IMG/VR virus record: IMGVR_UViG_3300005532_000002
From: a virus
DNA length: 59,884 nt
Reading direction: 5' to 3' (one strand)
A model generated the notes under the pieces. It was not told the DNA's origin and searched no databases. It was given only the letters and a program-made list of their open reading frames with translations. Both the position numbers and the translations under genes were made by a program. Positions 3,155-59,884 of this stretch are shown here, one piece after another; within the stretch, counting starts at the first letter, position 1, and each line of letters opens with the position of its first letter.

Positions 3155-6100
3155 TCAGTGGAGAGCGGCCGCTCCCGAGGCCGCCTGTGGCCCGAGAAGC
3201 TGCGCCCGCTTGGCCGCGAGCGCGGCGCGGACAATGTCGGGATAGCGCATCATCACCAGGCTGCGCGCCGTCTCGCGGGCGCCGCGGATGGCGCTCGTCA
3301 GCATGTCGTGCTGCACGCCGGCCGGGAGCATCGCGAAGCCGGGCATACGCACGATCGCATCGACCCGCATCTTCGCCATGCGGCCGGCGGTGCGGGAAAA
3401 GAGGTCATATTGCTCGTCGGACAGCGCGACGCCGCGGATCTTGCGCGGCAGTTGCGCGGGAAAGACGCCGAGCCGCAGCAGCGCCTGGTTTGCCGGATCG
3501 GTGTTGATGCGGCTCTCATAGAGCGCCGTCACCTCGGGAACCAGCGCCTGCCGGTTCGGGATCGGCTGGCCCCAGATATCGTAGCGCGGCGGCAGGGTCT
3601 CCGAGACGAACGGGATCTTGGCCTTGATCGCGTCGAGCACGCTGCGCGTCTGCCGCATATAGGGATCGAGCGTGCGCGCGGTCTGCGACAGGCCGACCGA
3701 GAACGGCACGAAGGACGAAAAGAAGCCCTTGGCCCAACTCTCGCCGTGCTGCGTCGGCTCCTCGATCGCGCCGAGCAGCTCGGACGGCCCGCGCAGAAAG
3801 CTCTCGTCGAGGATGTTGCGCGCGACCGCGTGCACCGCCATCGCCGCGGTGTTGGCGAGGTCGCCCTTTGCGGCGTAGCCGGCGACGTCCCACAGATCGG
3901 CGGCGATGCCGAGCCCGATGCCGAGCACGCCGAGCCGATGGATCTGATAGTATATGTCGCCGATGCGCACCGAATAGGGCTGCCAGCCGGTCAGATACTT
4001 GACCGAGGCCTCGCGCGGGTCGGAAGGCGGCGAGCCGGTCAACAGCCCCTCGGCCGCGAGACTGCCGCCCAAGAGCATCAACGCCGAGCCGGCGATCATG
4101 CGCCCGGCCGCGAGATCCTGCGCCGCGCCGCCGTTGCGGCCCAGCAGATCGTCGCGGATGCGCGGCGACAACAGCCCGACCGGGGTGCGCTCGACAAGGG
4201 CGCTGTCCATGATGTTGGCGGTGATCGTCACGAACGGATCGACGAAGCGCAACGGGCGCAAGGTGCCGAGCGGCAGCGTGCGGCCGCCCGGCAGCGGCAC
4301 GTCGGGCAGGGCGACGCCGGCGTCGACCAGCGAGGCGAAGCGCTGGCGCAGGCTGCCGTAGGGCGCCTTCTGCATCATCGCGTCCTCGCCGGCCTCGGCG
4401 ATCGCCCGCCGCATCATGTCTTCGGTCGGGTCGACCGTCAGCGCGCGGATGCGGGCGGCGAGATCGTCGCCGGCGCGCCCTTCCTCGGCGGCGGTCCGGT
4501 ACGCCTGCGCCGCGATGCTGCGGGTGTAGCCGGCGGTGCGCGACAGCGCATGGATGGCATTGATCAGCCGCCCGGGCGATTCGAGGACCGTGCCGGCAAT
4601 GCCCGGGATGACGCGGGTGCGGAACGGCTTCGCCGCCATCTCCTCGCCCGGCAGAAGCTGCGTCTCGTTCGATTTGAACGCCCGCCAGGCAGCTTTCCAG
4701 CCGTCGCGCGCATAGCCGCGCATGAAGCCGTAGAGCCCGGCCGGCACTTCGCCGAAGCGCACGCGGTCGGCCGCCGCATCGCCCAAGAGGCCGCGCAGCT
4801 CGCCGACGATCGCCGCAGCGCCGCGCTCGGCCGTGCCCTTCCACAGGCTGAACAGCGCGTTGGCGACGGCATAGGTGCCGTGCGTCGCCGGGCCCGAGAT
4901 CAGCGCGTTGACGAAGAAGCTCTGCAGCCAATCGAACAGGCCGGTCTTGTCGCTGTCGGCGACGAATTTCGAGACCTGCGCCGGGGTGTCGAGCTCGAGG
5001 CCGAGCTGCGCCTCCCGGCGCATCTGGAACAAGGTCCGCCCGGTCGCGGTCTCGAGGAACTGCTCAAGCGGCTCGTCGCGCGCGCCCTTGAACGCGCGGA
5101 ACGCCCTGAGCGCCCGCCCGGCCTCGGCGGTGATCCCGGCCACCTGTCCCTGGATCATACGATGCCGCGCCTTCGCCTCGGCATAGCGCAGCACGTCTTC
5201 CTCGCTGCCGAAGGCGGCGCGGGCCATCGCGTCGCGCACCGCTGTCGCCGATTGGATCAAGAGTTTGCGCGCGGCCACGACCTGCTCGGCGTTGAAGGCC
5301 TCGCCGATCCGGCGCCGGTTCAGCTTCGCCGCGTCCATGCCGAGCGCGTCGGCGAGAGCGAGCACCTGCGCGTCCGAGACGACGCCGCGGCGCTCGGCGA
5401 CGAACGCGTCGTTCTCGTCGGCCGCGTCGCGGATCGCCTCGTTGACCGACTCGGGCGTGCCGAGCAGATCGAGCCGGATGTTGCCGGCCTTGTCTACGAA
5501 CTCGCTGCGTCCCCCAATGGTCCCTTTGGCATCGGGGAAGAAGTCGTTTGGTCCGTCTGGGGTCCCCGCGCGATCTGTGATCGCGCGGGGCTGGGGCGGC
5601 GGCTCTTCTGCCGTTGCGCCGCCGCGGCGAGCCCCAGCGCCGCCTCCGCCTGGTCGAGCGCCTTCTTGTATAGGAGCCTCACCGGCTGCGGCAGGTCCGG
5701 ATCGCCCAGCGCCGCCAGCGCCCGCTCGCGGCCTTCCAAGAGCTGCTCCTCGTCGATCGGCATTCTCGATGTCCTCAAGGCTCTGCGGCGTGCCGTATTC
5801 GAGTTCCGGGCGCCACTCGCGACCGTGCTCCTCGGCCCAATGCTGCGCCGCCCGATCGGCCTCGGCAAGCGCGCTCTCGTGCCGGATGGCGAGCCGCTCG
5901 GCCATCGTCTCGGCCGCTTCCAGGCCGACCCTGTCGGCGATCGCGTCGAAGAACTGTTCGCGCGAGAGGCCGCGCGGATCGACGCCGCGCTCCTGGGCGA
6001 GGCGGTCGATCTCCTCGTTCTGGGCCAGCGCCCGCTCGTATTCGGCGGCGGCGGCGCGGTCGTGCTCGGAATAGCGCGGGCGCTGTTTCAGGTCCTCTTC

Positions 6101-9100
6101 GATCGCATCGAGCAGCGATTGGATGTCCGGGCGCTCGGCGTATTCGGGCAGGTAGCCTTCTTCCCACGCCCGGAGCGCCGCCTCGTCGAGCGGCAGGCCG
6201 TTGCGGTTGACGAGCCCGATGCGGCCCCTGGCGCCGCCGATAATCGCGCGCACGTCGCCGCCTTCGTCGCGCACGCCGCCCTGCTGTTTCAGCCACGCGA
6301 CGAGGCGCAGCGGCTGGCGCGGCACGCGCTCGTAGGGCGTTATCTCCGGGGATCGGCGAGCTGCTGTTTCAGATGCGCGATGGCCTTGCGGCGCAACCTC
6401 GCCTCCGCCCGGTAGGAGCGCTCCTGCTCCTTCACGTGCGCCCGCAGTTCCGGCGACAGGTTCGGGCGCAGGCCCATGACGATCAGATGGTTCACCCGGC
6501 GGCGCGCCTCCGCCAACTCCTTCTCCTGGTGCGCCAATTCCTCGTGCGGCGATCTCATCCTTTACCTCCGGCGCGGTGCGCTCTTCGGTCTCGGCGCGCA
6601 CCTGCTCGGCGACCTGCGCCGCATGCGTCGGCAACGTGCGCGCGGCCGCGGCCTCGTGCGTGTCGGCCAAAGTGCGCGGCGGCTCTTCCTCGCGTGCGAT
6701 TATAGTCCGTCCCGGCTCGTGCGACAGCATGCGGTCGAACACGCCGCGGATGTCGTCGGTGATCGGCCGGCCGAGCTGCCTGGCGCTCTGATAGATCGCC
6801 GTGAGCCATTGACGGAACTGCGCGAATACTCTGGCAAGCGCTTGGCTGGGGGCGCGGCCCTCCCTCATGTATTGCTCGAAGCCGCGGGCGAAGCGCTCAT
6901 GCATGCGCGTGGTGATGTAGCCGTCCGGCTTTGTGCCGAGCCACTTGCGCACCGTCTCGGCATCGTCCTTGAGCGATTGCGGGGCGAGCGGGTGCGCGGC
7001 GTCGGCGACGAGGTTTTCGAGCCATGCATGTCCGGTCTCGTGAATGAAGGTCGAAGCGTCGGCATGCTCAAGGAGGGTGATGGTGGCGCGGGCCTGCTTC
7101 GTCGCGAGCCGGATTTTGCCGCGTTGGGCTTGCTCGAGCTCGTCTTCCGGTCCTATATTTGAGTTGCTGCTTTGGCTCCCTGGGTCGAAGGGAGACTCGC
7201 CTGACGGCGAGGAGACATCTGGGCCCGGTTGTCTCTGAAGCGGTGCGCTGCTCTGGCTCCCTGGGGAATTAAAGGGAGAACCGCCCTCCAGCGGCGAGGC
7301 GCCTGGACCCGGACGCCTCCAGAGCAGTTCTTGATTGCGGAAGTAGCTCGGGCGATACAGCCCCGCCGTGGTGACGGTCCAATGAGAGCCGTCCGCTGAC
7401 GGACGCAGCTCGACGACAGCAATCCGCACCCGCCCGTTTGGCTTCGCCAACAGTAGCCGGCCATCGCGTGCCTGATATATTTCGGCAAAGCCATTGGCGA
7501 CATCTGCGACGAGTTCGGCGGCATCTCTGTATCCGGCGGTCCGGATCTGGGTGCCGTGGCGCGCTTCGATGTGCCGCTCGCCATAGGCATCATTGCCTTC
7601 CGGCAGCCGGATCGGTGCCGCATCGCGGCCTACCGCAGCGGCTATATCCGGAGTGATCTCGCCCAGGGTATCGGAGCCGTCGGCGCGGGCGACGAAACGC
7701 TCGCCGCCGCGCTCGACATAGCGCGCCTCACCCTCGCCGATGGGTATTGGCTCCGGGCCGGGCACGCCCTGGGCATACTCCATCGCCCGTTTTGAGGCCC
7801 CGCGGCCGGCGACGATGCGCGGCGCATCGCGGGCATAGAGATCTTCCGGCGTGCCGAGCCGGCCGGCAAAGCGCGCGGCGCGCGTCTCGTAATAGGCGGC
7901 GACGAGTTGTCCGGCGGCGGTGGCCTCGTCCTGCGGGCGTCCGGCGGCGACGAGTTGCCGCGCCACGTCGCTGGCGATGCCGCCGGGCGGTAGCGGCTTC
8001 TTCTCTTGCAGAGCCGGCTTGCCGCCTTCCGGTTTTGGCTCGGCCGTTTGCGCCTCCGGCGGCGCGACGATCATCGGCGGCTCGGGGTGTTCCAGCGGCA
8101 GCTCGGCCTGCGTTTGCCCGGAAATCGCTTCCGGAGGCGCAGGGGGCGCGATTGCTGGTTCGGGCTGTTGGACGGCGGCCGCGGTTGCCTCGGCTGTCGG
8201 CGCCGCGGCGGTGGGGCTGGACGGCGCGATTTCCGGCCACGGCTGCGGCATCCGCGTCGCGGCCTCGCGGTAGGCAGCCGAGACATCGACCGCCAGATCG
8301 CGCATCCGGTAATCGGTCTGCATCAGCGCTTGGCGCACGCGCTGCATGTCCGGGGTGTCGCGGCTCGTCGCCGCGGCGATCGCCTCCTCGCGCGTCTCGG
8401 CGAGCGGCGCGCGCTGCTTTTCGAGATCGTCGATGCGCGCCTGGTAGATCTTCGTGCGGCGCGGATTGGTGCCTTCCAAGCGCTGCCGCTCGCGGGCGAT
8501 CTGCCGATCAAGGTCGGCGATCTCGGCGGTGTGCGGCGCGTTCGCCTCGGCATCGCGGCGCCGCACCTCGGCGAGATCGCCGAGCCAGCGCCGGAAGGTC
8601 TCTTTGCGCGCGGCAAGCGCGTCGTACTCCCTGAACGTGTCGGGCGCGATCTGGCGGGCGATAGTGTGAATGTCGGGTTCGGGCTCGGTTTCGCGCGCGC
8701 CGACATTGGGCTCTTCCGAGATGGTCTTGTCCGGTTCGGTCCCGGCCGGCGGCTGCTCCTCGGCGGTGGATTTCGTCGCGTCGGCGATCGCTGCGGCGTG
8801 CGCCTCTGCTGGTTCTCCTGTGGCCGGGGGCGGCTTTTCCTCTGCCGCTGTGCCATCCCATCCGTGTTCACCCTTGCCGATGACGCCGAGATCGCGCGCC
8901 GCACCGATCTCGCGTGGGCTGAGGGCGTGCGGCAGGTGCGGCGCCTCGGGCAGCAGCGCTTCCGGCAACGCCGCGATGTCGCGCGCCAGGGTCGGCGGCG
9001 CGCCGGCTTCGAGCGCGGTCTGTTCGGCCGCGCCTTGGGCGCCGCGGAAAGCGCCCTGGATCGCGCGGTTGACGACATCGATCGCCGTCGCCGCCGGTCG

Positions 9101-9469
9101 GATCAACGCCTCGTTGAACGAGCGGACGAGGCTCGCCTGGCCGCTCCGATAGTCGTTGAAGATGCCGGTCTTCTTGAGCCATGCCTCGCTGTCCGGCGAC
9201 AGGCCGAGCGGTTCCGAGCCCCATCCCTGCCCGTAGCCTTGCCCGAAGGCGGAGAGCACGCGCCCGGCGGCGCTGACGCCGGTCTGGAAATAATGATCGA
9301 GCGCGCCGCCTGCGCGCGCCCACAGCGAATCGCTCGGGGCGTTGGCGTGCGCGAGCAGGTCGTCGAGGCTCTTGAACGGCGGCGAGCTTGCGCCTGTGGA
9401 GGGCGGCGCGTTCTGCGGCCCAGCCTTGGCGAGCAGGTCGTCGAGGCTCCGGAAGGGTGCGTCGGGCAT
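3155..9469 (-). CDS. Giant (2104 aa) polyvalent internal/ejected virion protein
   Basis: Single ORF. HExxH motif FIHETGHAW, ERHIEARHG motif, hydrophobic C-terminal third. Sits after the gp16-like gene in T7-like gene order. Confidence 0.8.
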   Translation of the reverse strand: MPDAPFRSLDDLLAKAGPQNAPPSTGASSPPFKSLDDLLAHANAPSDSLWARAGGALDHYFQTGVSAAGRVLSAFGQGYGQGWGSEPLGLSPDSEAWLKKTGIFNDYRSGQASLVRSFNEALIRPAATAIDVVNRAIQGAFRGAQGAAEQTALEAGAPPTLARDIAALPEALLPEAPHLPHALSPREIGAARDLGVIGKGEHGWDGTAAEEKPPPATGEPAEAHAAAIADATKSTAEEQPPAGTEPDKTISEEPNVGARETEPEPDIHTIARQIAPDTFREYDALAARKETFRRWLGDLAEVRRRDAEANAPHTAEIADLDRQIARERQRLEGTNPRRTKIYQARIDDLEKQRAPLAETREEAIAAATSRDTPDMQRVRQALMQTDYRMRDLAVDVSAAYREAATRMPQPWPEIAPSSPTAAAPTAEATAAAVQQPEPAIAPPAPPEAISGQTQAELPLEHPEPPMIVAPPEAQTAEPKPEGGKPALQEKKPLPPGGIASDVARQLVAAGRPQDEATAAGQLVAAYYETRAARFAGRLGTPEDLYARDAPRIVAGRGASKRAMEYAQGVPGPEPIPIGEGEARYVERGGERFVARADGSDTLGEITPDIAAAVGRDAAPIRLPEGNDAYGERHIEARHGTQIRTAGYRDAAELVADVANGFAEIYQARDGRLLLAKPNGRVRIAVVELRPSADGSHWTVTTAGLYRPSYFRNQELLWRRPGPGASPLEGGSPFNSPGSQSSAPLQRQPGPDVSSPSGESPFDPGSQSSNSNIGPEDELEQAQRGKIRLATKQARATITLLEHADASTFIHETGHAWLENLVADAAHPLAPQSLKDDAETVRKWLGTKPDGYITTRMHERFARGFEQYMREGRAPSQALARVFAQFRQWLTAIYQSARQLGRPITDDIRGVFDRMLSHEPGRTIIAREEEPPRTLADTHEAAAARTLPTHAAQVAEQVRAETEERTAPEVKDEIAARGIGAPGEGVGGGAPPGEPSDRHGPAPEPVAGTAGAREGAGALLPGGGEVAPQGHRASETAARRSPEITPYERVPRQPLRLVAWLKQQGGVRDEGGDVRAIIGGARGRIGLVNRNGLPLDEAALRAWEEGYLPEYAERPDIQSLLDAIEEDLKQRPRYSEHDRAAAAEYERALAQNEEIDRLAQERGVDPRGLSREQFFDAIADRVGLEAAETMAERLAIRHESALAEADRAAQHWAEEHGREWRPELEYGTPQSLEDIENADRRGAALGRPRAGAGGAGRSGPAAAGEAPIQEGARPGGGGAGARRGGATAEEPPPQPRAITDRAGTPDGPNDFFPDAKGTIGGRSEFVDKAGNIRLDLLGTPESVNEAIRDAADENDAFVAERRGVVSDAQVLALADALGMDAAKLNRRRIGEAFNAEQVVAARKLLIQSATAVRDAMARAAFGSEEDVLRYAEAKARHRMIQGQVAGITAEAGRALRAFRAFKGARDEPLEQFLETATGRTLFQMRREAQLGLELDTPAQVSKFVADSDKTGLFDWLQSFFVNALISGPATHGTYAVANALFSLWKGTAERGAAAIVGELRGLLGDAAADRVRFGEVPAGLYGFMRGYARDGWKAAWRAFKSNETQLLPGEEMAAKPFRTRVIPGIAGTVLESPGRLINAIHALSRTAGYTRSIAAQAYRTAAEEGRAGDDLAARIRALTVDPTEDMMRRAIAEAGEDAMMQKAPYGSLRQRFASLVDAGVALPDVPLPGGRTLPLGTLRPLRFVDPFVTITANIMDSALVERTPVGLLSPRIRDDLLGRNGGAAQDLAAGRMIAGSALMLLGGSLAAEGLLTGSPPSDPREASVKYLTGWQPYSVRIGDIYYQIHRLGVLGIGLGIAADLWDVAGYAAKGDLANTAAMAVHAVARNILDESFLRGPSELLGAIEEPTQHGESWAKGFFSSFVPFSVGLSQTARTLDPYMRQTRSVLDAIKAKIPFVSETLPPRYDIWGQPIPNRQALVPEVTALYESRINTDPANQALLRLGVFPAQLPRKIRGVALSDEQYDLFSRTAGRMAKMRVDAIVRMPGFAMLPAGVQHDMLTSAIRGARETARSLVMMRYPDIVRAALAAKRAQLLGPQAASGAAALH

Positions 9470-12400
9470 CAGCGGACGCTCTCGGCGCCGATCCGGTTGA
9501 GCTGCTGTTCGGGTGTCTCACCGCGCGAATAGAACGTGCCAGGCTGCTCGGGTGGGGCGGTCGCCGATGCCGGTGCGGGCGGTTTCGTCGCCGGGGCAGC
9601 GATCCAACCGTGCGCGAGAGCAATCGCCTGCGCCTGATCGCGCGTGATGTGGCCGGCCTGGAACGCGGCGGCGAGCGCCTGCGGGGTGTCGATATCGGCC
9701 GCCGAAGCGGCCCCGCCGGGCGCGTTCTCGTTCAACAGATCCGATGTCCACTGCGACATCGGCCGTTTGAACGCGGCGATCGACTTGCCGATATAGTTCG
9801 GGCTATTGGGGTCGAAAATGTCGGACGGGGTTTTGCCCGCCGCTCGTGCCTTCTCGATCGCCGGCAAGGCCTGCGCCATGAATTTGAGGTACAGTTCCTC
9901 GCCCCGCGGATCCTTGATGTGCAGCCCGTCGTCGGCGCCCGAGATCTCGCCGTGCGCGGTGCGGAAGAACTGGCGCTCCATCTCGGTCCATGCCGCGGCC
10001 TCGGGCGTGCCGCGTCCGGCGATGATCTTCGACAGCGCATCGACGCCCTTCAAGGTCAGATCGCCGCCCGGGCCGGCGTGGCGCATGATCTCGGCTTGGT
10101 CGGTGATGCGCGTCGGATCGCCCGGCGGTGCCGTCACGCGCTTGTAGAGCGACCAGAAAGCCGGGCCATAGGTCTGCGTCGCCTCGGCGACGTCGCTGCC
10201 GCTCTGCTTGACGGCAAAGCGCTGGTACATGTCGAGGAGCGCCCGCCGCGTATCCGGCAGCAATGCCGGGTCGCTGCCGATCTGCGCCGCCGTCAGGGTC
10301 GGGTGGCCGCTCGACAGGTCGGCGATGATTTCGTTCGCGCGCGCCTGGCTGGCGTCGTGGAGCTGCTGTTCGTGCAGTTGCCGCGCGTGTTCCTGGTCGG
10401 CCCAGTGCGCGGCGTAGTTGACGCGGGCGAGATCAATCGCCTTGGCGAGGACCTGCGGATCCTGGATCTTGCGCGTCAGTTCGGCGATCTTGTCGGAGAG
10501 GCTCGGAACCTGCTCGTCGCTCGGCCGCTGTGCCGGCGCATTCGCGGCCGCCGGGATTCCCGTCGCACGCGTCTCGGCGCCGGGCTTGCCTGCCAAAGCC
10601 GCCGCCGGCGTGATGCTCGCCTCGCCGTTGTCGCCGACATGCAGGTATACGGTGCCGTACCTGTGGATCATGTCTTCGACCTGAGCCTTGAAGGTCGGCC
10701 ACTGGTTCCCGGCGATCGCGACGCAACCCTTGGTGATCAGCTCGTCGCTCGATCCGGCGTGAAGCTCGATCCCGACGCGGGCGCGCCCCAAGCGCGGGTC
10801 GTAGATGAAGTTGTTGTTGACCCCGATGGCGCCGTGCGCGCGCCCCCACGGGCCGACCGCGCCGGGCGTGATCGGATAGTTTCCCGGCGGGATCGGCGCG
10901 GCGCCCTTCTCGCCGCCGGAGCCCCATTGGTAGTGCCGCCCTTCGACGTCGATCGTGCCGCCGATGTGCGCCGGCGGCTGCCTCGGTGTCGTCGCGGCCT
11001 GCCGGCCAAGCGCGGCGATGGCCTGCTCGCGCAGCTTGTCGACTTCGGCGGGATGAATTCCGTCCTTTTGCCAACGGATGTTGGGTTCGAAGAAGACGGC
11101 GCCGTGCGCCTCGGCGAGCTGCCGCAGTTGCGCATTAACGGCGTCGCGGTTCGGCACGCCCGGGCCGACGCCGGGAACGACCGCGCGAGCGCCGGCCTTT
11201 TGCAGAAGGTCGAGTTCCTGCCCGACGATCGCCACCTGCGCCGGGTTGTTGCTGGTCCCGGGCGACAGGAAGATGGTCCGGCCCTTGAACTGCTCGGGCG
11301 GCGTCGCCTGTAGGCGGGCGAGCACCATCGCCGGCGTGTCGCCGATGACCGCGGTCGCGCCCCGCTGCTGCGCGAGCGCGCGCCCGCGCTGGCCTTCCTT
11401 GCCGCCGACGCCGTGGCGGATCTGCTGCACCGCGATCGAGTCGCCGAAAGCGAGATCGAATTTCGGCGGGGCGGCCGGGGCGGCGGCCGGCTCTGTCCCG
11501 GCACCGATGCCGCCGCCTCCTGAGCCTGTCGAAGGGCCGAGGGCGGCGCGCTCGTAGCGCTCGCGCCACAGATCGACGAAAGTCGACGCCGGCGCGTTCG
11601 GATCGCCGCCGTTGGCGCGGATGTTTTCGGGCAGCACGACCTTGCCGGCCGGCGTGCCCGGCGGCGCGTTCAGCAGCGCGACCGCACCCGGGACGCCCTG
11701 CTGATGCGCGAGATAGACTTCGGCGTTGGTCGGTTCGCGGCCAAGCGCCGCGCCGAGTTCGCTCTTGGTCTGCGCCAGCCAGCGGAGGCCGTTGTCGATC
11801 TGCGTGCCGCGATCGGCCATGTCGCCGCCGCCGGCCTTCCTCCACTCGTCCGGCCCGAGCTGGAAGATATTGCCGCGGGGCCCGAGGTTGCGGCCGAGGT
11901 CGCTCTCGAGCCGCGCCGTGCCGACGGCGAGCGAGGGGTCGATATTGAGGCGCTGCGCCCGGTCGGCGATCGTCTGCGCGACCGGGCCGCTCGGAGCGCC
12001 CGCGGGCGCTGAGCCTGTCGAAGGGCCGAACACCGCCCGCGTTGCCTCGGCATCGACGAGCTTTTCGTGGATACCGCGCTCCAATGCGTCGCGCTGCGCC
12101 GGGTCGATGTGCGGGCCGTATTGCTGTAGCAGTGTGTTGGCGGTCGCCCAATCCTCGCGCGCCATCGCGCCCTGGATCGCCGCGGTCGCACCGAGGCCGA
12201 CCGGGTCGTGCCCGACATAGCGCTTGTCGCCGAGATCGGACAGCCGTTGCATCTGGCGACCGATCGTCTGGAACTGGCTGTCGAGATAACCCGGATCGTT
12301 ATACTGGTTCGACACGCTCCGCAGGGCCGAGACGATCGCGGCGGTGCTGGTGTCGAGCGCGTTCGTGCGCACCGCTTCCGCCGCGGCGCGGCCGATTGCG

Positions 12401-12816
12401 CGCGAGAAGGCGACGCGCTGGTAATTCGTGCTGCGCGCGAAAAAGTTCTGCGCCTGCTCGTTGCCGAGACTGGCGCCGCTCTGCCGCCACAACTCGTCGA
12501 GCTGCTGCATGACCTGCGGGCGCGCCCGCAGAAAATCCGCGCCGGTCTTCGCGAACAGGCCGTTCTCGCCGTAGAGCAGATCGTTGGCCTTCTCGCTCCA
12601 ATCTACGGCGGCGTTCTCGGCGCTCGTCTCGTTGTGAAGCTGCTGGATCTGGATGGCGGCTTCCGCCATCGCATTGCCGCCGGCCTGGATCTCGCCGCCG
12701 GCGCGCTGCATCGCCGCGCCGACGACGTCGAGGCGCGGCATGTCGGGCCGATAGAAAACGGGCGCCGGGGCGGCCGGGCGAACATCGGGCGCGCCCTGAT
12801 AGACGACGCGGGCCAT
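9469..12816 (-). CDS. Internal virion protein with lytic transglycosylase, SGNH/GDSL hydrolase and YkuD/DUF2778 (Tlde1-like) domains
   Basis: ARLESDLG..YLAHQQG (SLT-like); FGDSIA..GTSNN..DGIHP (SGNH blocks); GNYPI..ELHAGSSDELITKGCVAI (H/C motif). Confidence 0.8.
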   Translation of the reverse strand: MARVVYQGAPDVRPAAPAPVFYRPDMPRLDVVGAAMQRAGGEIQAGGNAMAEAAIQIQQLHNETSAENAAVDWSEKANDLLYGENGLFAKTGADFLRARPQVMQQLDELWRQSGASLGNEQAQNFFARSTNYQRVAFSRAIGRAAAEAVRTNALDTSTAAIVSALRSVSNQYNDPGYLDSQFQTIGRQMQRLSDLGDKRYVGHDPVGLGATAAIQGAMAREDWATANTLLQQYGPHIDPAQRDALERGIHEKLVDAEATRAVFGPSTGSAPAGAPSGPVAQTIADRAQRLNIDPSLAVGTARLESDLGRNLGPRGNIFQLGPDEWRKAGGGDMADRGTQIDNGLRWLAQTKSELGAALGREPTNAEVYLAHQQGVPGAVALLNAPPGTPAGKVVLPENIRANGGDPNAPASTFVDLWRERYERAALGPSTGSGGGGIGAGTEPAAAPAAPPKFDLAFGDSIAVQQIRHGVGGKEGQRGRALAQQRGATAVIGDTPAMVLARLQATPPEQFKGRTIFLSPGTSNNPAQVAIVGQELDLLQKAGARAVVPGVGPGVPNRDAVNAQLRQLAEAHGAVFFEPNIRWQKDGIHPAEVDKLREQAIAALGRQAATTPRQPPAHIGGTIDVEGRHYQWGSGGEKGAAPIPPGNYPITPGAVGPWGRAHGAIGVNNNFIYDPRLGRARVGIELHAGSSDELITKGCVAIAGNQWPTFKAQVEDMIHRYGTVYLHVGDNGEASITPAAALAGKPGAETRATGIPAAANAPAQRPSDEQVPSLSDKIAELTRKIQDPQVLAKAIDLARVNYAAHWADQEHARQLHEQQLHDASQARANEIIADLSSGHPTLTAAQIGSDPALLPDTRRALLDMYQRFAVKQSGSDVAEATQTYGPAFWSLYKRVTAPPGDPTRITDQAEIMRHAGPGGDLTLKGVDALSKIIAGRGTPEAAAWTEMERQFFRTAHGEISGADDGLHIKDPRGEELYLKFMAQALPAIEKARAAGKTPSDIFDPNSPNYIGKSIAAFKRPMSQWTSDLLNENAPGGAASAADIDTPQALAAAFQAGHITRDQAQAIALAHGWIAAPATKPPAPASATAPPEQPGTFYSRGETPEQQLNRIGAESVR

Positions 12817-13424
12817 CAGGGGCCTCCGCTGAAATCCTGATTACCGACGTTTGGGCTGCCGGTCGGCATGAACGGACTGAAAAAGCCGCCGCCGGCCGGG
12901 GCGGCGCCAACGGTGGTCATCCAACTATATTTGGCGCCCACGTTGCTCAACCCGCCCATCAGCGAGCCCATCGCGCCCCACATGCCAGCCTGTTCGTCGG
13001 CGCTCGCCTCTGCGCTATAGAGCCCGGCTTGCGCCTGCTGGTTCGTGCCGGCAACCTCGTACTCGTAGCCCTGCACCTCGCCCTGTTGCATCACGGTCGC
13101 GGCGTTGGTGCGGCCGACGAGACGCTGGGTTTCCTGCGTCTGCTTGGCGCTGCCGGTGTTCGGGTCGATGCCGGAAGCACCCTGTTCGGCGGCGATCGCG
13201 GCGACGGCCTGCCGGTTTTGCAGGCTGGCGTTCTCGGCCTGCGCCTCGCCCGCCTCCTGTGCCGCGGTGGCCGATTGCTGCGCGGCGATGGCATTGTTGT
13301 TGGCGACTTGCGCCTGATAACGTGCCATCGCGGCTTCGGTTTGCCCTTGTTCAAAGGCCCCGATGGCCGAGATGCCGGTGCCGATGACGCCGAAGATCGG
13401 CGCCGCAGCGGCCAAGAGGCCCAT
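12816..13424 (-). CDS. Internal virion protein (Q/A-rich, hydrophobic N-terminus)
   Basis: Internal ATG (aa 43) of ORF 12816..13550. Its start lies 2 nt after the upstream stop. Confidence 0.6.
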   Translation of the reverse strand: MGLLAAAAPIFGVIGTGISAIGAFEQGQTEAAMARYQAQVANNNAIAAQQSATAAQEAGEAQAENASLQNRQAVAAIAAEQGASGIDPNTGSAKQTQETQRLVGRTNAATVMQQGEVQGYEYEVAGTNQQAQAGLYSAEASADEQAGMWGAMGSLMGGLSNVGAKYSWMTTVGAAPAGGGFFSPFMPTGSPNVGNQDFSGGP

Positions 13425-28745: not shown

Positions 28746-29603
28746 CTAACTCCCTTGGGTTGTGGAATACCGGCGTTCATAGCGATTCCGCGCCGGCGCG
28801 GGTTGTGAAGCCGGGACCGGTCCCGGCTCGCGGTGGAGCTGCGCCAGCCCCTTGGCCGCATTGGCGAACCAGCGGATGACCGCCGGATGATCGCCGGCGC
28901 CGGTGAAGTCGAGGACGCGGGCGAATTCCTTGAGATGCGCGTCGTCGGTCGCGAACCGGTCGCGCAGCGCGCGCACCGCGGCGAGCGTGGTGTTGAGCCG
29001 GTTGCCGCCGATCTCGCGGTCCTCCGTCACCGCCTTGCGCCAGGCGGCGCGGGTCTCGCCGAAGACGCGGTGCTGCTCGGCCGCCATCTGCTCGTGAAAA
29101 TGCCGGACCTCGTCGGCGTAGAGGTCGATCAACTTCTGGCCCTGCTCCTGCGTCAGCCCGGCCTCGCCGATCAGATCGGTGAAGGCGGTCATGCGCTCGT
29201 CGTCGGGCGCGCCGACGTCGTCGGGCAGCTTGAACGGCTCATAGGTGAGCTTCGCCGGCTCCGGCGGCTCCTGAGCGGCAGTCGAAGGATCGGGCTGCGG
29301 CTCGCCCTCTTGCGGCTTCGGCTTCTCGGCCTCGCCGCCGAGCATCGACGGCTTGCCGTCGGGGACGGTTCCCGGTTCTGGCACCGGGGAAGGTTCTGCA
29401 GGGGCGGCCGCGCCGCCATCCGGCGCTGTCGATGCGGCGGGTTCGGATGTGGGGGCGCCAGTGTCAGCAGCGAGCGCGGCAGGCGCCGACGCGGTCTCGG
29501 ATGCCGCGGGAACAGAAACGGCCGCCTCTGTCGAAGCGGCCGGTCCTGAGCTTGTCAAAGGGGCGGGCGCGGCAGGCACTGCCGCCGGGGCGTCAGGTGG
29601 CAT
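28746..29603 (-). CDS. Scaffolding protein
   Basis: Ala/Pro/Glu-rich N-terminus and helical C-terminus, directly upstream of the capsid gene. Confidence 0.65.
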   Translation of the reverse strand: MPPDAPAAVPAAPAPLTSSGPAASTEAAVSVPAASETASAPAALAADTGAPTSEPAASTAPDGGAAAPAEPSPVPEPGTVPDGKPSMLGGEAEKPKPQEGEPQPDPSTAAQEPPEPAKLTYEPFKLPDDVGAPDDERMTAFTDLIGEAGLTQEQGQKLIDLYADEVRHFHEQMAAEQHRVFGETRAAWRKAVTEDREIGGNRLNTTLAAVRALRDRFATDDAHLKEFARVLDFTGAGDHPAVIRWFANAAKGLAQLHREPGPVPASQPAPARNRYERRYSTTQGS

Positions 29604-40524: not shown

Positions 40525-40826
40525 GGCACGCCCCCTGAGCCCGTCGAAGGGGCCGCCGTCACGCCCAGCTCGGCTTGCGCCGCAGCCAGGGCGGCCGCAT
40601 CCGTGCGGCGCCGACGCTCAGCGTCCTCCGCCTGCTCGATCCGCGCCGTGTGTAGCCGCGCCTCGCGATGGCGAGCGAGGCGAGCGAGCTCCGGCAAGAT
40701 CTCGTCGGCAGGGCGCCGCGGCCGGCCGGCCGCGGCCTGAAGGCGAGTGAGCGCCTCGTCGAGGTCGAGACCTCCGATCTTGAGTGGCTGAAAGACGCGA
40801 AGCGAACGAGCGCTTCGCGAAGCCAT
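40521..40826 (-). CDS. Hypothetical protein
   Basis: Internal ATG (aa 41). The longer ORF would start at a TTG inside the iteron array. Confidence 0.45.
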   Translation of the reverse strand: MASRSARSLRVFQPLKIGGLDLDEALTRLQAAAGRPRRPADEILPELARLARHREARLHTARIEQAEDAERRRRTDAAALAAAQAELGVTAAPSTGSGGVP

Positions 40827-40895: not shown

Positions 40896-41062
40896 GGTCA
40901 ACGCAAGGTCAACGCAAAGCATTTTCAACGACTTATCCGAGGTCAACGCAGGTCAACGCAAGGTCAACGCACAAAGGTCAACGCACAACGATTTCAACGT
41001 CTTAGCTCCTTTTTTGCGTTGACCTTGGCCAAACCGGAAAGGTCAACGCAGAGGTCAACGCC
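40896..41062. repeat. Iteron array (GGTCAACGCA, eight direct copies and one inverted), putative replication origin
   Basis: Copies at 40896, 40907, 40941, 40951, 40962, 40976, 41041, 41053; inverted copy at 41015; degenerate TTTCAACG at about 40923 and 40992; A/T-rich tract 41063-41082. Confidence 0.75.
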
Positions 41063-46350: not shown

Positions 46351-46577
46351 CGCAGCGTCCCGGCGGGGTGATCGGCCGGCCCCGCGCCCTCCGGCCGATC
46401 TGCGGGGCGACCGGGCCGAGGAGCGCCCGCGCGGGCCGCATGCTGTTGCCGCTTGTGCTCGACCCACACCGTCCAAGAGCGGAAGCTGTCGACCTCCGGA
46501 TCGTATCCGTCATCATCGGGGTCCCCGCGGGATCCCCATGGACCCTTGGGATCCCGCGGGGCTGGGGCGATCGTCAT
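46347..46577 (-). CDS. Hypothetical protein carrying the palindromic GGGATCCCGCGGGG pair and the left 28-bp inverted repeat
   Basis: Internal ATG (aa 51), ATGA overlaps on both sides. Confidence 0.5.
   Translation of the reverse strand: MTIAPAPRDPKGPWGSRGDPDDDGYDPEVDSFRSWTVWVEHKRQQHAARAGAPRPGRPADRPEGAGPADHPAGTLR
46507..46534. repeat. Left arm of the 28-bp perfect inverted repeat
   Basis: ccgtcatcatcggggtccccgcgggatc is the reverse complement of 47947-47974. Confidence 0.85.
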
Positions 46578-47946: not shown

Positions 47947-47974
47947 GATCCCGCGGGGACCCCGATGATGACGG
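47947..47974. repeat. Right arm of the 28-bp perfect inverted repeat
   Basis: gatcccgcggggaccccgatgatgacgg, in an ORF-poor gap. Confidence 0.8.
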
Positions 47975-51470: not shown

Positions 51471-52271
51471 GTGGATATGGACGCTATGCCGTCCTGCTGC
51501 GCGGTCATGCAGAGCGCCGAGATCGGCGAACTCGCCGCGGCGCTGGCGAAGGCGATGGGCGAGGTGCAGAACCCGGCGCGAGATCGCACCGTCACGATCC
51601 CCGGACGACCAAACTACTCTTACGCCACTCTGAACGCGGTGTTCGACGCGATCCGCCGGCCGCTCGCCGCCAATGGCCTCTGGCCGTCGCAAGGACTGAT
51701 CGAACGTGGCGGCAAGACCTGTCTGCGCACGGTCCTGCTGCACTCGTCGGGCCAATGGATCGCCAGCGAGGCACCGCTGCTGCCACAGGGTCAGGGCAGC
51801 CAAGCTTTCGGGTCGGCCCTCACTTACATGCGCCGCTATGCACTGTGTGCGCTGCTCGGCGTCGTCGCCGACGAGGACGACGATGCGAACGCGGCCGACG
51901 ACAATGCGGCCAAGACCGCGCCGCGGGCGCTGCGCGCCGCCAAGGCCGCCCCCGCGCCACCGGCGTCGCCTGCCAAAGCGGGCGCCGCGCCCGCCGTGTC
52001 GCCCGGCCGTCCGCAACTTCTTGCGCTCGCCAAAGAGCGCGCTAGGGAATTCGGTTTCGACGCGTTTAAATCGTGGTGGTGGGAGATCGACGAGAAGGAT
52101 CGCGCGGCGCTGAAACCGCACGAAGCCGAGCTGGCGAAGATCGCCAGAGAGGCCGATGCGGCGGGCGCCAAAAAGGCTAAGCCGCCGCCCCATCCGGATG
52201 AGAGCGCCAAGCTCGACAGCGAGCCCGACTTTGTCGGCGAGGACGACGCCGAGCGGGTGCTGGCACCGTGA
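51471..52271 (+). CDS. erf: ERF-family single-strand annealing protein
   Basis: YSYATLNAVFDAIRRPLAANGL..GSALTYMRRYALCALLGVVADEDDDAN. Confidence 0.75.
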   Translation: MDMDAMPSCCAVMQSAEIGELAAALAKAMGEVQNPARDRTVTIPGRPNYSYATLNAVFDAIRRPLAANGLWPSQGLIERGGKTCLRTVLLHSSGQWIASEAPLLPQGQGSQAFGSALTYMRRYALCALLGVVADEDDDANAADDNAAKTAPRALRAAKAAPAPPASPAKAGAAPAVSPGRPQLLALAKERAREFGFDAFKSWWWEIDEKDRAALKPHEAELAKIAREADAAGAKKAKPPPHPDESAKLDSEPDFVGEDDAERVLAP

Positions 52272-53047
52272 AAGACGCGATCCTCGTGCGCAAGGCGCCG
52301 GCGCCGCCCGGCGCGCCGCACAAAGACATGCTATTGCCGGCCGACAGCCACGCCGCCGCGGCGCTCGCGGCGCTGCCGATCGCCGAGACGATCGCCGTCA
52401 AGGTGGTGCGTGAGCGCTCGCTGCCGATGCACCGCCTGTTCTTCGGCATTTTGCAGCATGTCGCCGAGAACTCGCGATTCGAGACGGCCGAGAGGCTGCT
52501 CGTCGCCCTGAAGATCCGACTTGGACGGTATGACCTCTGCCGCCTGCCGAACGGCCGCTGCGTGCCGGTGCCGCAGTCAATCAGCTTTGCGGCGATGGAT
52601 CAGACGGAATTCCGCCGCTTCTTCGACGACGCCGTGAAGTTGATCTGTGAGGAAGTGCTGGGCGGCATGGACAGCGCGCAGTTGATCCGTGACGTCGAGG
52701 CCATGCTCGGGCTGCCGCCGCTTCCCCAATCCGAACCGACGCCCGCGGCAGAGGGCGCCGGGACCGCGGCGCGCGGCCCTGAGCCTGTCGAAGGATCGCG
52801 CGGGGACCCCGGTGAGGACGTCGCAATCCCGATCTTTTCGTTCCGCGCCGGCGCTGGCCCGCGCGACAAGGCCAACGCCTTTCACTACTGGATCGAGGCG
52901 ATCGACAACCGCGCCGATCTGTTGCGCTTGCAGAACCGCAACGCCGCCGCGCTGGTCGAACTCGGCAAGAGCGCGCCGGCCGAATACGACGAGGTCATGG
53001 CCGCGTTCCGGGCACGGCATGTGGCGCTTGGGGGCGCGGCGGGATGA
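52268..53047 (+). CDS. Hypothetical early protein (possibly DUF1367-like)
   Basis: GTGA overlap with the erf stop. Confidence 0.5.
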   Translation: MKDAILVRKAPAPPGAPHKDMLLPADSHAAAALAALPIAETIAVKVVRERSLPMHRLFFGILQHVAENSRFETAERLLVALKIRLGRYDLCRLPNGRCVPVPQSISFAAMDQTEFRRFFDDAVKLICEEVLGGMDSAQLIRDVEAMLGLPPLPQSEPTPAAEGAGTAARGPEPVEGSRGDPGEDVAIPIFSFRAGAGPRDKANAFHYWIEAIDNRADLLRLQNRNAAALVELGKSAPAEYDEVMAAFRARHVALGGAAG

Positions 53048-59764: not shown

Positions 59765-59884
59765 CCTCGCCCGTCGCAAATCACGTCGCATGAGTAGCGG
59801 TTTCCCGCAGAACGAACGGACAAGGCATTGAAATATAATGCTGGATGGGTGGCCGAGAGGTTTAAGGCACCGGTCTTGAAAACC
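59765..59884 (+). repeat. Right copy of the 120-bp direct repeat (attR core or terminal overlap)
   Basis: Identical to 1-120. Begins 15 nt after the int stop. Confidence 0.9.
59843..59884 (+). tRNA. 5' part of tRNA-Ser(UGA)-like gene, cut by the window end
   Basis: Same 42 nt as 79-120. Whether an intact 3' half follows cannot be seen. Confidence 0.55.

Follow-up and report, generated by a model that had tools for sequence, protein, structure and literature searches.

Among the described families of short repeats linked to small nuclease genes, REP/BIME sequences with their RAYT partners and the IS200/IS605 elements rely on HUH (Y1) enzymes, and are extragenic and lineage-specific. Selfish DNA can also reside within protein-coding genes, as is known for the Rickettsia palindromic elements (RPE) (PMC10969869). 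For the Ssn nucleases and their NTS/SRM hairpin repeats, a repeat-flanked arrangement of GIY-YIG genes was described in 2025 (Chenal et al., Nat Commun, PMC11893778). The present study concerns a 21-nt direct repeat, CTGAGCCTGTCGAAGGGCCGA, which occurs twice in one gene of IMG/VR virus record IMGVR_UViG_3300005532_000002, a podovirus-like phage genome of 66.5% GC whose whole stretch of 59,884 nt is referred to here as the window. The two copies surround a transglycosylase domain of an internal virion protein. They are probably single copies of a short repeat dispersed in bacteria and phages, tolerated as linker insertions, with the domain in place first and the repeats arriving later.

The dispersed element combines traits of an Ssn/NTS-like repeat with the in-frame insertion typical of RPE. 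Like the NTS/SRM repeats, it is short, oriented and multi-copy across several phyla, with sphingomonads rich in copies, and it brackets small single-domain GIY-YIG genes in an IS-like manner; the repeat-gene-repeat arrangement of the Ssn system has been linked to the control of recombination (PMC11893778). Its core nevertheless falls outside the published HGTCWY... pattern, and while the NTS is rarely found in genes (2%, PMC11893778), the element often lies in frame within them. The nucleases that it flanks are nearest to UPF0213 by solved structures; the clade of the Ssn nucleases, which cut their repeat as single-stranded DNA, is cd10448. The likeness to RPE lies in a dispersed family found in frame in many unrelated genes, adding a peptide where the fold tolerates it. 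RPE, however, are about 100-150 bp long, palindromic and confined to Rickettsia, whereas the unit here is about 15-24 nt, is commonly present as a single copy, and has an identical core across phyla and also in phages. Short repeats that flank a small nuclease gene, and that may form hairpins, are shared with the REP/BIME-RAYT and IS200/IS605 systems, whose strand-specific single-strand chemistry would explain an orientation bias, but the associated gene here is of the GIY-YIG type and the same core is found in distant phyla.

The repeat pair and its dispersed family

Exactly two occurrences of the 21-mer are present in the window, both on the plus strand and 489 nt (163 codons) apart from start to start, so that the identical direct repeats, their spacing and the GPSTGS linker they encode, all proposed in an earlier note made from the letters alone, proved exact on computation. 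Both are in frame in a minus-strand gene at 9469-12816 encoding 1115 amino acids (aa), where they read (F/L)GPSTGS(A/G):

11520..11540, plus strand: repeat copy A, the same 21-mer as copy B, in the linker between the transglycosylase domain and the GDSL-like segment; minus-strand reading L-GPSTGS-G, aa 426-433.
12009..12029, plus strand: repeat copy B, the 19-nt core CTGAGCCTGTCGAAGGGCC followed by GA, in the linker that joins the N-terminal domain to the transglycosylase domain; minus-strand reading F-GPSTGS-A, aa 263-270.

The edges of the identity are sharp, with C in copy A and G in copy B at position -1, and G and A, respectively, at position +22. Compared with the 21-nt family consensus CCCTGAGCCTGTCGAAGGGCC, each copy has a single mismatch (copy A at 11518-11538, copy B at 12007-12027). 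Of the seven repeat codons, three have A or T as their last base; the third-position GC of the gene is 0.87. A chance origin of the pair was rejected: no shuffle reproduced the pattern, and any duplicated 21-mer at all appeared in only 2 of 200 triplet shuffles of the window. An assembly artefact was likewise discarded, an independent ENA contig (59,905 nt) having the same sequence with one mismatch in 15.3 kb, outside the repeats.

The family core comprises the 19 nt of CTGAGCCTGTCGAAGGGCC, usually preceded by CC, and exact searches of public DNA were made with this core. Genomes and metagenomes each contributed more than 120 contigs to the matches listed, and the core is present in 58 stretches of viral contigs; two control 19-mers, the reversed core and a neighbouring 19-mer of the same gene, gave no match in the same viral search. 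Carriers include Actinomycetota, Acidobacteriota, Bacteroidales, Dehalococcoidia, Chloroflexota, sphingomonads, Burkholderiales and Treponema. The 254 distinct public contexts have only the element in common, with the consensus CCG-Y-K-S-K-CC, core and G. Their flanks are conserved for C at -1 (96%) and C at -2 (82%) and no further out, and the left edge of the identity between the window repeats is also the left edge of the public family.

Four forms of the element occur in public DNA: inverted copies around GIY-YIG genes, putative hairpin pairs devoid of a gene, tandem arrays and single copies. By arrangement, 144 public copies are single, 85 form close direct pairs or arrays with a period of roughly 23-30 nt, and 57 form close inverted pairs. 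An inverted partner lies within 150 nt for 70 of 263 copies, and single copies fold like shuffled sequences (z about -0.4). In 1.69 Mb of fetched loci, all five small GIY-YIG open reading frames (ORFs) are located within 0-4 nt of the element and most are bracketed by inverted copies, the repeats thus flanking small single-domain GIY-YIG genes on one or both sides. One flanked ORF matches Pfam PF01541 with an E-value of 1.8e-16, and the nearest solved structures to these nucleases are the UPF0213 proteins 1zg2 and 1ywl; NCBIfam naming was uninformative. The published SRM pattern, HGTCWYN(0-2)YYVSBRHN(0-5)WNVSBRGN(0-2)RNCYNB, which the NTS itself matches as a positive control, matches only 2 of 263 public contexts, both through nearby canonical NTS copies, and has no match in the window. 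Rfam recognised only tRNAs in 15 element-bearing loci and nothing in the whole window, and a full-text literature search for the core, its variants and its six translations returned nothing relevant. The dispersed element is therefore apparently undescribed, neither an Rfam family nor, among the papers searched, one with its sequence or translations having been found.

Other repeats are found in its vicinity. At two loci, the element has canonical Neisseria-type NTS copies (CGTCATTCCCGCGAAAGCGGGAATCCAG) as neighbours, no more than 60 nt away. In two further, Bacteroidales loci, a different dispersed element (...GATTGCTTCGTTCCTCGCAATGACG..., read SLRGTKQSR) stands beside a GPSTGSG insert; the site in L035 is the linker of a DNA polymerase I-like gene, that in L078 an ORF.

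Public occurrences in ORFs of at least 250 aa number 151, with GPSTGS the commonest reading (51), alongside PEPVEG (35), and many of these long ORFs show a genuine coding GC pattern. Single copies are often in frame in loops or linkers of genuine proteins, where they mostly read GPSTGSG, and viral contigs carry this reading in portal-like, integrase-like and other ORFs. One repeat family is thus found in frame in unrelated genuine genes, including those for GatB, methylmalonyl-CoA mutase and a phage portal protein. One GatB has about 15 extra loop residues (GPSTGSGQAAPAG...) compared with the Pseudomonas aeruginosa structure 4wj3, and one methylmalonyl-CoA mutase carries SGPSTGSGRNLL in place of SGD-G-NIL of the human enzyme. 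The portal gene, carried by IMGVR_UViG_3300009095_002264 (L301 501-1652, compared with L302-L317), encodes SAGPSTGSGS where nine relatives (74-81% identity) have SAGQS, a lineage-specific gain of 15 nt. In the DNA, GGG CAG AGC of the nine relatives has become GGC CCT TCG ACA GGC TCA GGA TCG. This insertion is patch-like, sharing GGG and CAG with the old sequence and leaving no target-site duplication, and is not of the cut-and-paste kind. Inserted patches of about 15-45 nt occur in many phyla.

With up to four mismatches from CCCTGAGCCTGTCGAAGGGCC, the window holds five copies (starting at 11518, 12007, 29544, 40533 and 52777) where 0.1 would be expected. Beyond the repeat pair, these are:

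29544..29564, plus strand: diverged copy of the element, TCCTGAGCTTGTCAAAGGGGC, with 4 mismatches; it is read APLTSSG by the minus-strand protease/scaffold-like gene 28746-29603, whose Ala/Pro-rich N-terminal region contains it.
40533..40553, plus strand: element copy CCCTGAGCCCGTCGAAGGGGC, 2 mismatches, in the C-terminal tail of a minus-strand ORF (APSTGSGGVP-stop), adjoining the start of the next gene.
52777..52797, plus strand: CCCTGAGCCTGTCGAAGGATC, a copy of the element with 2 mismatches; the NinB/Orf-like gene 52268-53047, itself on the plus strand, reads it past the NinB domain in another frame, GPEPVEGS.

The 17-mer match at 52779 taken alone equals window background, and the copy was accepted through its consensus CC prefix and the family profile (the five matches against 0.1 expected). 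Four of the copies are read by minus-strand genes in the PSTGS-type frame, in two linkers, a low-complexity N-terminal region and a C-terminal tail.

These readings bear on the idea that GPSTGS is itself a functional peptide, for instance a protease site that frees the transglycosylase after ejection or a linker selected for its flexibility. Both copies do sit in disordered linkers at domain borders, and the phage encodes a protease-like head protein. The peptide is, however, conserved in none of 175 relatives of the virion protein, the identity holds at the nucleotide level including rare codons ending in A or T, and the same DNA is read as PEPVEG in another window gene and in other frames elsewhere; selection on the peptide is accordingly a very improbable explanation.

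All five window copies lie on the plus strand, read in two frames by genes of both strands. In other viral contigs, too, exact copies that share a contig invariably have one direction (---, +++, --, ++ and --; L005, L249/L276/L281, L003/L287/L295 and L260), including six copies within 11 kb of one contig that share a direction their genes do not, although the sample is small, at about five independent contigs. Co-orientation regardless of gene strand suggests a process specific to one strand, for instance replication or exposure of single strands. GC skew was uninformative as a guide to the direction of replication, and a phage database gave only a 78-nt match.

One way to account for this orientation would be that the copies are functional DNA sites, either targets or decoys of an Ssn-type strand-specific single-strand nuclease, or recombination hot spots. 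Selection on one strand would produce the co-orientation seen in the window and in the other viral contigs, the cuts made by Ssn nucleases fall on a single strand of the repeat, and an NTS-gene-NTS arrangement modulates recombination (PMC11893778). The few independent contigs, the absence of the published Ssn pattern and the lack of a nuclease gene in the window nevertheless make a role as DNA sites unlikely.

The transglycosylase domain and its relatives

The gene that hosts the pair and its modules, in the order in which they are translated, are as follows:

9469..12816, minus strand: whole gene for a 1115-aa multi-enzyme internal virion (ejection) protein, matching phrog_418 and phrog_6651 (internal virion protein).
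12031..12816, minus strand: conserved N-terminal domain and family anchor, aa 1-262, with PHROG matches over aa 33-268.
11545..11985, minus strand: lytic transglycosylase domain of the phiKZ gp144/GH23 type, aa 278-424, with the Glu-Ser motif E304-S305.
11002..11472, minus strand: segment resembling GDSL/SGNH hydrolases, aa 449-605, motif FGDSIA; it matches Pfam PF13472 with E 2.4e-4 but stays under the gathering score.
10612..10986, minus strand: possible Tlde1/YkuD-like (L,D-transpeptidase-fold) segment, aa 611-735; faint Pfam PF10908 match at E 0.12.

A C-terminal domain follows these modules, and the protein has a further match named 'putative internal virion protein'. The segment enclosed by the repeats had been called SLT-like, a call upheld although the Pfam SLT profile (PF01464) does not match this protein even at E 10; some distant relatives do match it. 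Against the PDB, a profile of 27 homologous segments finds phiKZ gp144 (3bkh) at E 4.6e-12 and T7 gp16 at E 0.007, as well as MltE, MltF and MltC. An AlphaFold model of the domain (pLDDT 96) has helices over aa 278-424, and a Foldseek search with it again gives 3bkh as the best match (probability 1.0), followed by MltC, MltE and MltF. Glu304 (E34 of the alignment) is invariant and the Glu304-Ser305 pair invariant or nearly so. The model thus predicts a lysozyme-like helical fold with a catalytic Glu-Ser pair, as in GH23 and gp144. Both GPSTGS peptides fall in disordered linkers just outside the modelled fold.

The fold, the Glu-Ser motif and the place in an internal virion protein encoded beside a gp14-like gene are shared with the N-terminal domain of T7 gp16 and with phiKZ gp144. 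The differences are that the domain here follows a 262-aa N-terminal domain, precedes GDSL-like and possibly Tlde1-like segments, and escapes the Pfam SLT profile. In T7, the transglycosylase motif of gp16 is reportedly not needed under optimal conditions. The GDSL-like segment is kept in many relatives, while the segment at aa 611-735, whose H...GC motif we take to be Tlde1/L,D-transpeptidase-like, is present only in this protein among the 176 family members examined (0 of 175 relatives).

When the N-terminal domain served as query in an exhaustive profile search, 8371 representative proteins matched at E <= 1e-3, and the content of the slot that follows this domain was examined in 159 sequences. 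In 51 of them the slot is filled by a domain of the gp144-like kind, 30 have a classical SLT domain there (four were checked with Pfam, which confirmed them), 7 have Phage_lysozyme2 and 68 an unrecognised segment, and 3 lack the slot. Since it holds different muralytic domains or none across these relatives, the muralytic region is modular at the level of the family, and an architecture resembling the predicted deletion product occurs in nature. Two of the three proteins that lack the slot (P0142 and P0148) join the N-terminal domain directly to the GDSL segment through unrelated linkers and carry another lysozyme-like segment after it, and the third (P0095) joins the N-terminal domain directly to the C-terminal domain; in P0012 and P0028 the order of the domains is swapped.

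None of the 175 relatives contains GPSTGS, PSTGSG or PEPVEG. Among 39 word-indexed homologues, each one with the N-terminal domain has an adjoining transglycosylase, and GPSTGS occurs in none. The closest relative, P0002 (63% identity), has the domain, neither repeat and unrelated linkers, and its 13-kb contig (L002) carries no copy of the element. Identity with P0002 at four-fold degenerate sites is 0.566 for the N-terminal domain, 0.571 for the transglycosylase and 0.534 for the GDSL segment, against a composition expectation of 0.36, giving no sign of a separate history for the enclosed domain and its flanks. Because synonymous divergence is equal across the three modules while the repeats are still identical at 21 of 21 positions, the domain is far older than the repeats and was co-inherited with its neighbours, the three modules sharing one history.

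These comparisons weigh on the proposal, made in the earlier note, that the domain is a cassette that enters or leaves the gene by recombination between the linker repeats. The repeats are indeed exact, in frame and just outside the fold, recombination between them would excise exactly 163 codons in frame, as had been pointed out, and the slot is variable, with both direct joins and order swaps among the relatives. The modular slot thus stands and the repeats as its vehicle do not. Neither the same repeats at the junctions of relatives nor a single repeat at an empty junction was found among the 175 relatives, P0002 has the domain without them, and divergence is even across the modules. The domain is, moreover, retained in all three contigs carrying this protein, and the 21-mer is a member of a family that is both genome-wide and pan-bacterial, three further copies of which lie in unrelated genes of this phage. 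Gain or loss of the domain through these repeats is consequently very unlikely.

What the pair does supply is 21 bp of perfect direct homology around 468 nt of the gene, from which we infer that a rare in-frame deletion of the domain could occur as a side effect. Repeats of such length reportedly lead to deletions at measurable frequency in T7.

Proposed arrival and spread of the repeats

According to the favoured explanation, tolerated insertion of a dispersed repeat, the element would settle where extra residues are harmless, and its five co-oriented window copies would have survived in such places. GPSTGSG would be a harmless flexible peptide, and the repeats would flank the transglycosylase because seven extra residues in a linker do no harm. 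Both would have arrived after the domain, either as two imports or with one copied from the other. Spread of the element may be due to a GIY-YIG nuclease, probably encoded by the host, or to strand-specific copying of single-stranded DNA; its GIY-YIG association, taken with the shared orientation of the copies and the patch-like change in the portal gene, points to a single-strand, microhomology-using process driven in trans. Demonstrated here are the match to the family core, the spread of the family, its GIY-YIG association, in-frame insertions elsewhere, a domain older than the repeats, and relatives devoid of them.

Several points weigh against this explanation. Neither linker can be aligned with that of the closest relative, at only 63% identity, and the insertion in this particular gene is a putative one. 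Copy B departs from the family at position -1, and both copies carry a non-consensus GA tail. A GIY-YIG gene is missing from the window, the element departs from the published SRM pattern, and single copies fold no better than shuffles.

The details of the two copies raise the possibility that only one came from outside and that this one served, through template switching or gene conversion, as the template for a local 21-nt copy; the pair would in that case be a recent intragenic event. Both share the same 21 nt including the GA tail, whereas public copies have G at +19 in 45% and A at +20 in 16%, and copy B has G at -1, where C is near-universal. The shared tail and the missing C favour local templating of one copy from the other over two imports, and the portal case provides an example of patch-like replacement with microhomology. 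Two imports from one source copy may nevertheless explain the pair as well, and the three other window copies indicate repeated acquisition by the phage, leaving a local copying event a possible but tentative account of the pair.

A broader proposal is that the element is a pan-bacterial mobile linker, spread through single-stranded DNA by small GIY-YIG nucleases and, being so frequently read in the one frame GPSTGSG at domain borders, offering phages and bacteria frame-compatible homology for domain swaps and deletions; it might further mark one strand of the phage DNA for a single-strand nuclease of the host. In that case the transglycosylase would be one domain trapped by such a joint on either side. 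So general a role is doubtful.

The surroundings of the two copies also contain inverted sequences. A perfect 16-nt palindrome, AGCGCCCGCGGGCGCT, at 11995-12010 abuts copy B and overlaps its first two bases, its half-site CGCCCGCG reappears directly after copy B, and copy A lies between complementary GCCGCC/GGCGGC runs. Around both window copies, inverted repeats of 7-8 bp have a frequency of 1-3% under the window null. They were set aside as a feature, since flanks of this kind are absent from public single copies and linker codons for Ala (GCC) and Gly (GGC) complement each other; the palindrome and the complementary runs may reflect this codon complementarity only.

Wider genome context and meaning

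The virion protein gene is neighboured by a gp14-like gene at 12816-13424, whose T7_gp14 match is weak, and by the gene for a 2104-aa internal virion protein at 3155-9469, with tail-tube, major capsid, protease/scaffold, portal and terminase genes beyond on the same strand. The 2104-aa neighbour contains a second exact in-frame 21-nt direct repeat, GCGAGCAGGTCGTCGAGGCTC, at 9351-9371 and 9429-9449. Unrelated in sequence to the dispersed element, it reads F(R/K)SLDDLLA twice, 26 codons apart, near the N-terminus and with PPSTGAS between the copies.

Elsewhere in the window, a perfect 22-nt palindrome, GCCGCGGCCGGCCGGCCGCGGC, at 40715 is accompanied by about six iteron-like GGTCAACGCA units at 40896-40990. 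Gene orientation switches from minus to plus in this region, which may be an origin or regulatory region; the element copy at 40533 is 200 nt away. An exact 28-nt inverted repeat, CCGTCATCATCGGGGTCCCCGCGGGATC, has its arms at 46507-46534 and 47947-47974, 1.4 kb apart. The ends of the window are identical over 120 nt (1-120 and 59765-59884), which we attribute to a circular k141 assembly with its k-mer overlap, the ENA contig being 59,905 nt long. At 79-120, a fragment of about 42 nt resembles the 5′ part of a tRNA-Ser(UGA) gene and may be an attP-like core; ARAGORN and Rfam found no complete tRNA there, and there are no tRNA genes in the window.

For the virion protein, a domain cassette bearing its own recombination scars gives way to the better supported story of a short repeat lodged in the tolerant places of the protein. 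The 21-bp repeats still predict a specific 489-bp in-frame deletion, which is relevant to engineering this lysin-bearing protein, and, if the Tlde1-like segment is real, three different peptidoglycan-directed activities would be combined in one protein. What sets the element apart is an identical 19-nt core in distant phyla and in phages, its tie to GIY-YIG genes, its in-frame presence in housekeeping and phage structural genes, and its co-orientation. If the gap in its description is real, the element would extend the Ssn/NTS theme to coding regions and to phages, and would offer a testable origin for linker peptides, for annotation artefacts and for rearrangements over short homology.

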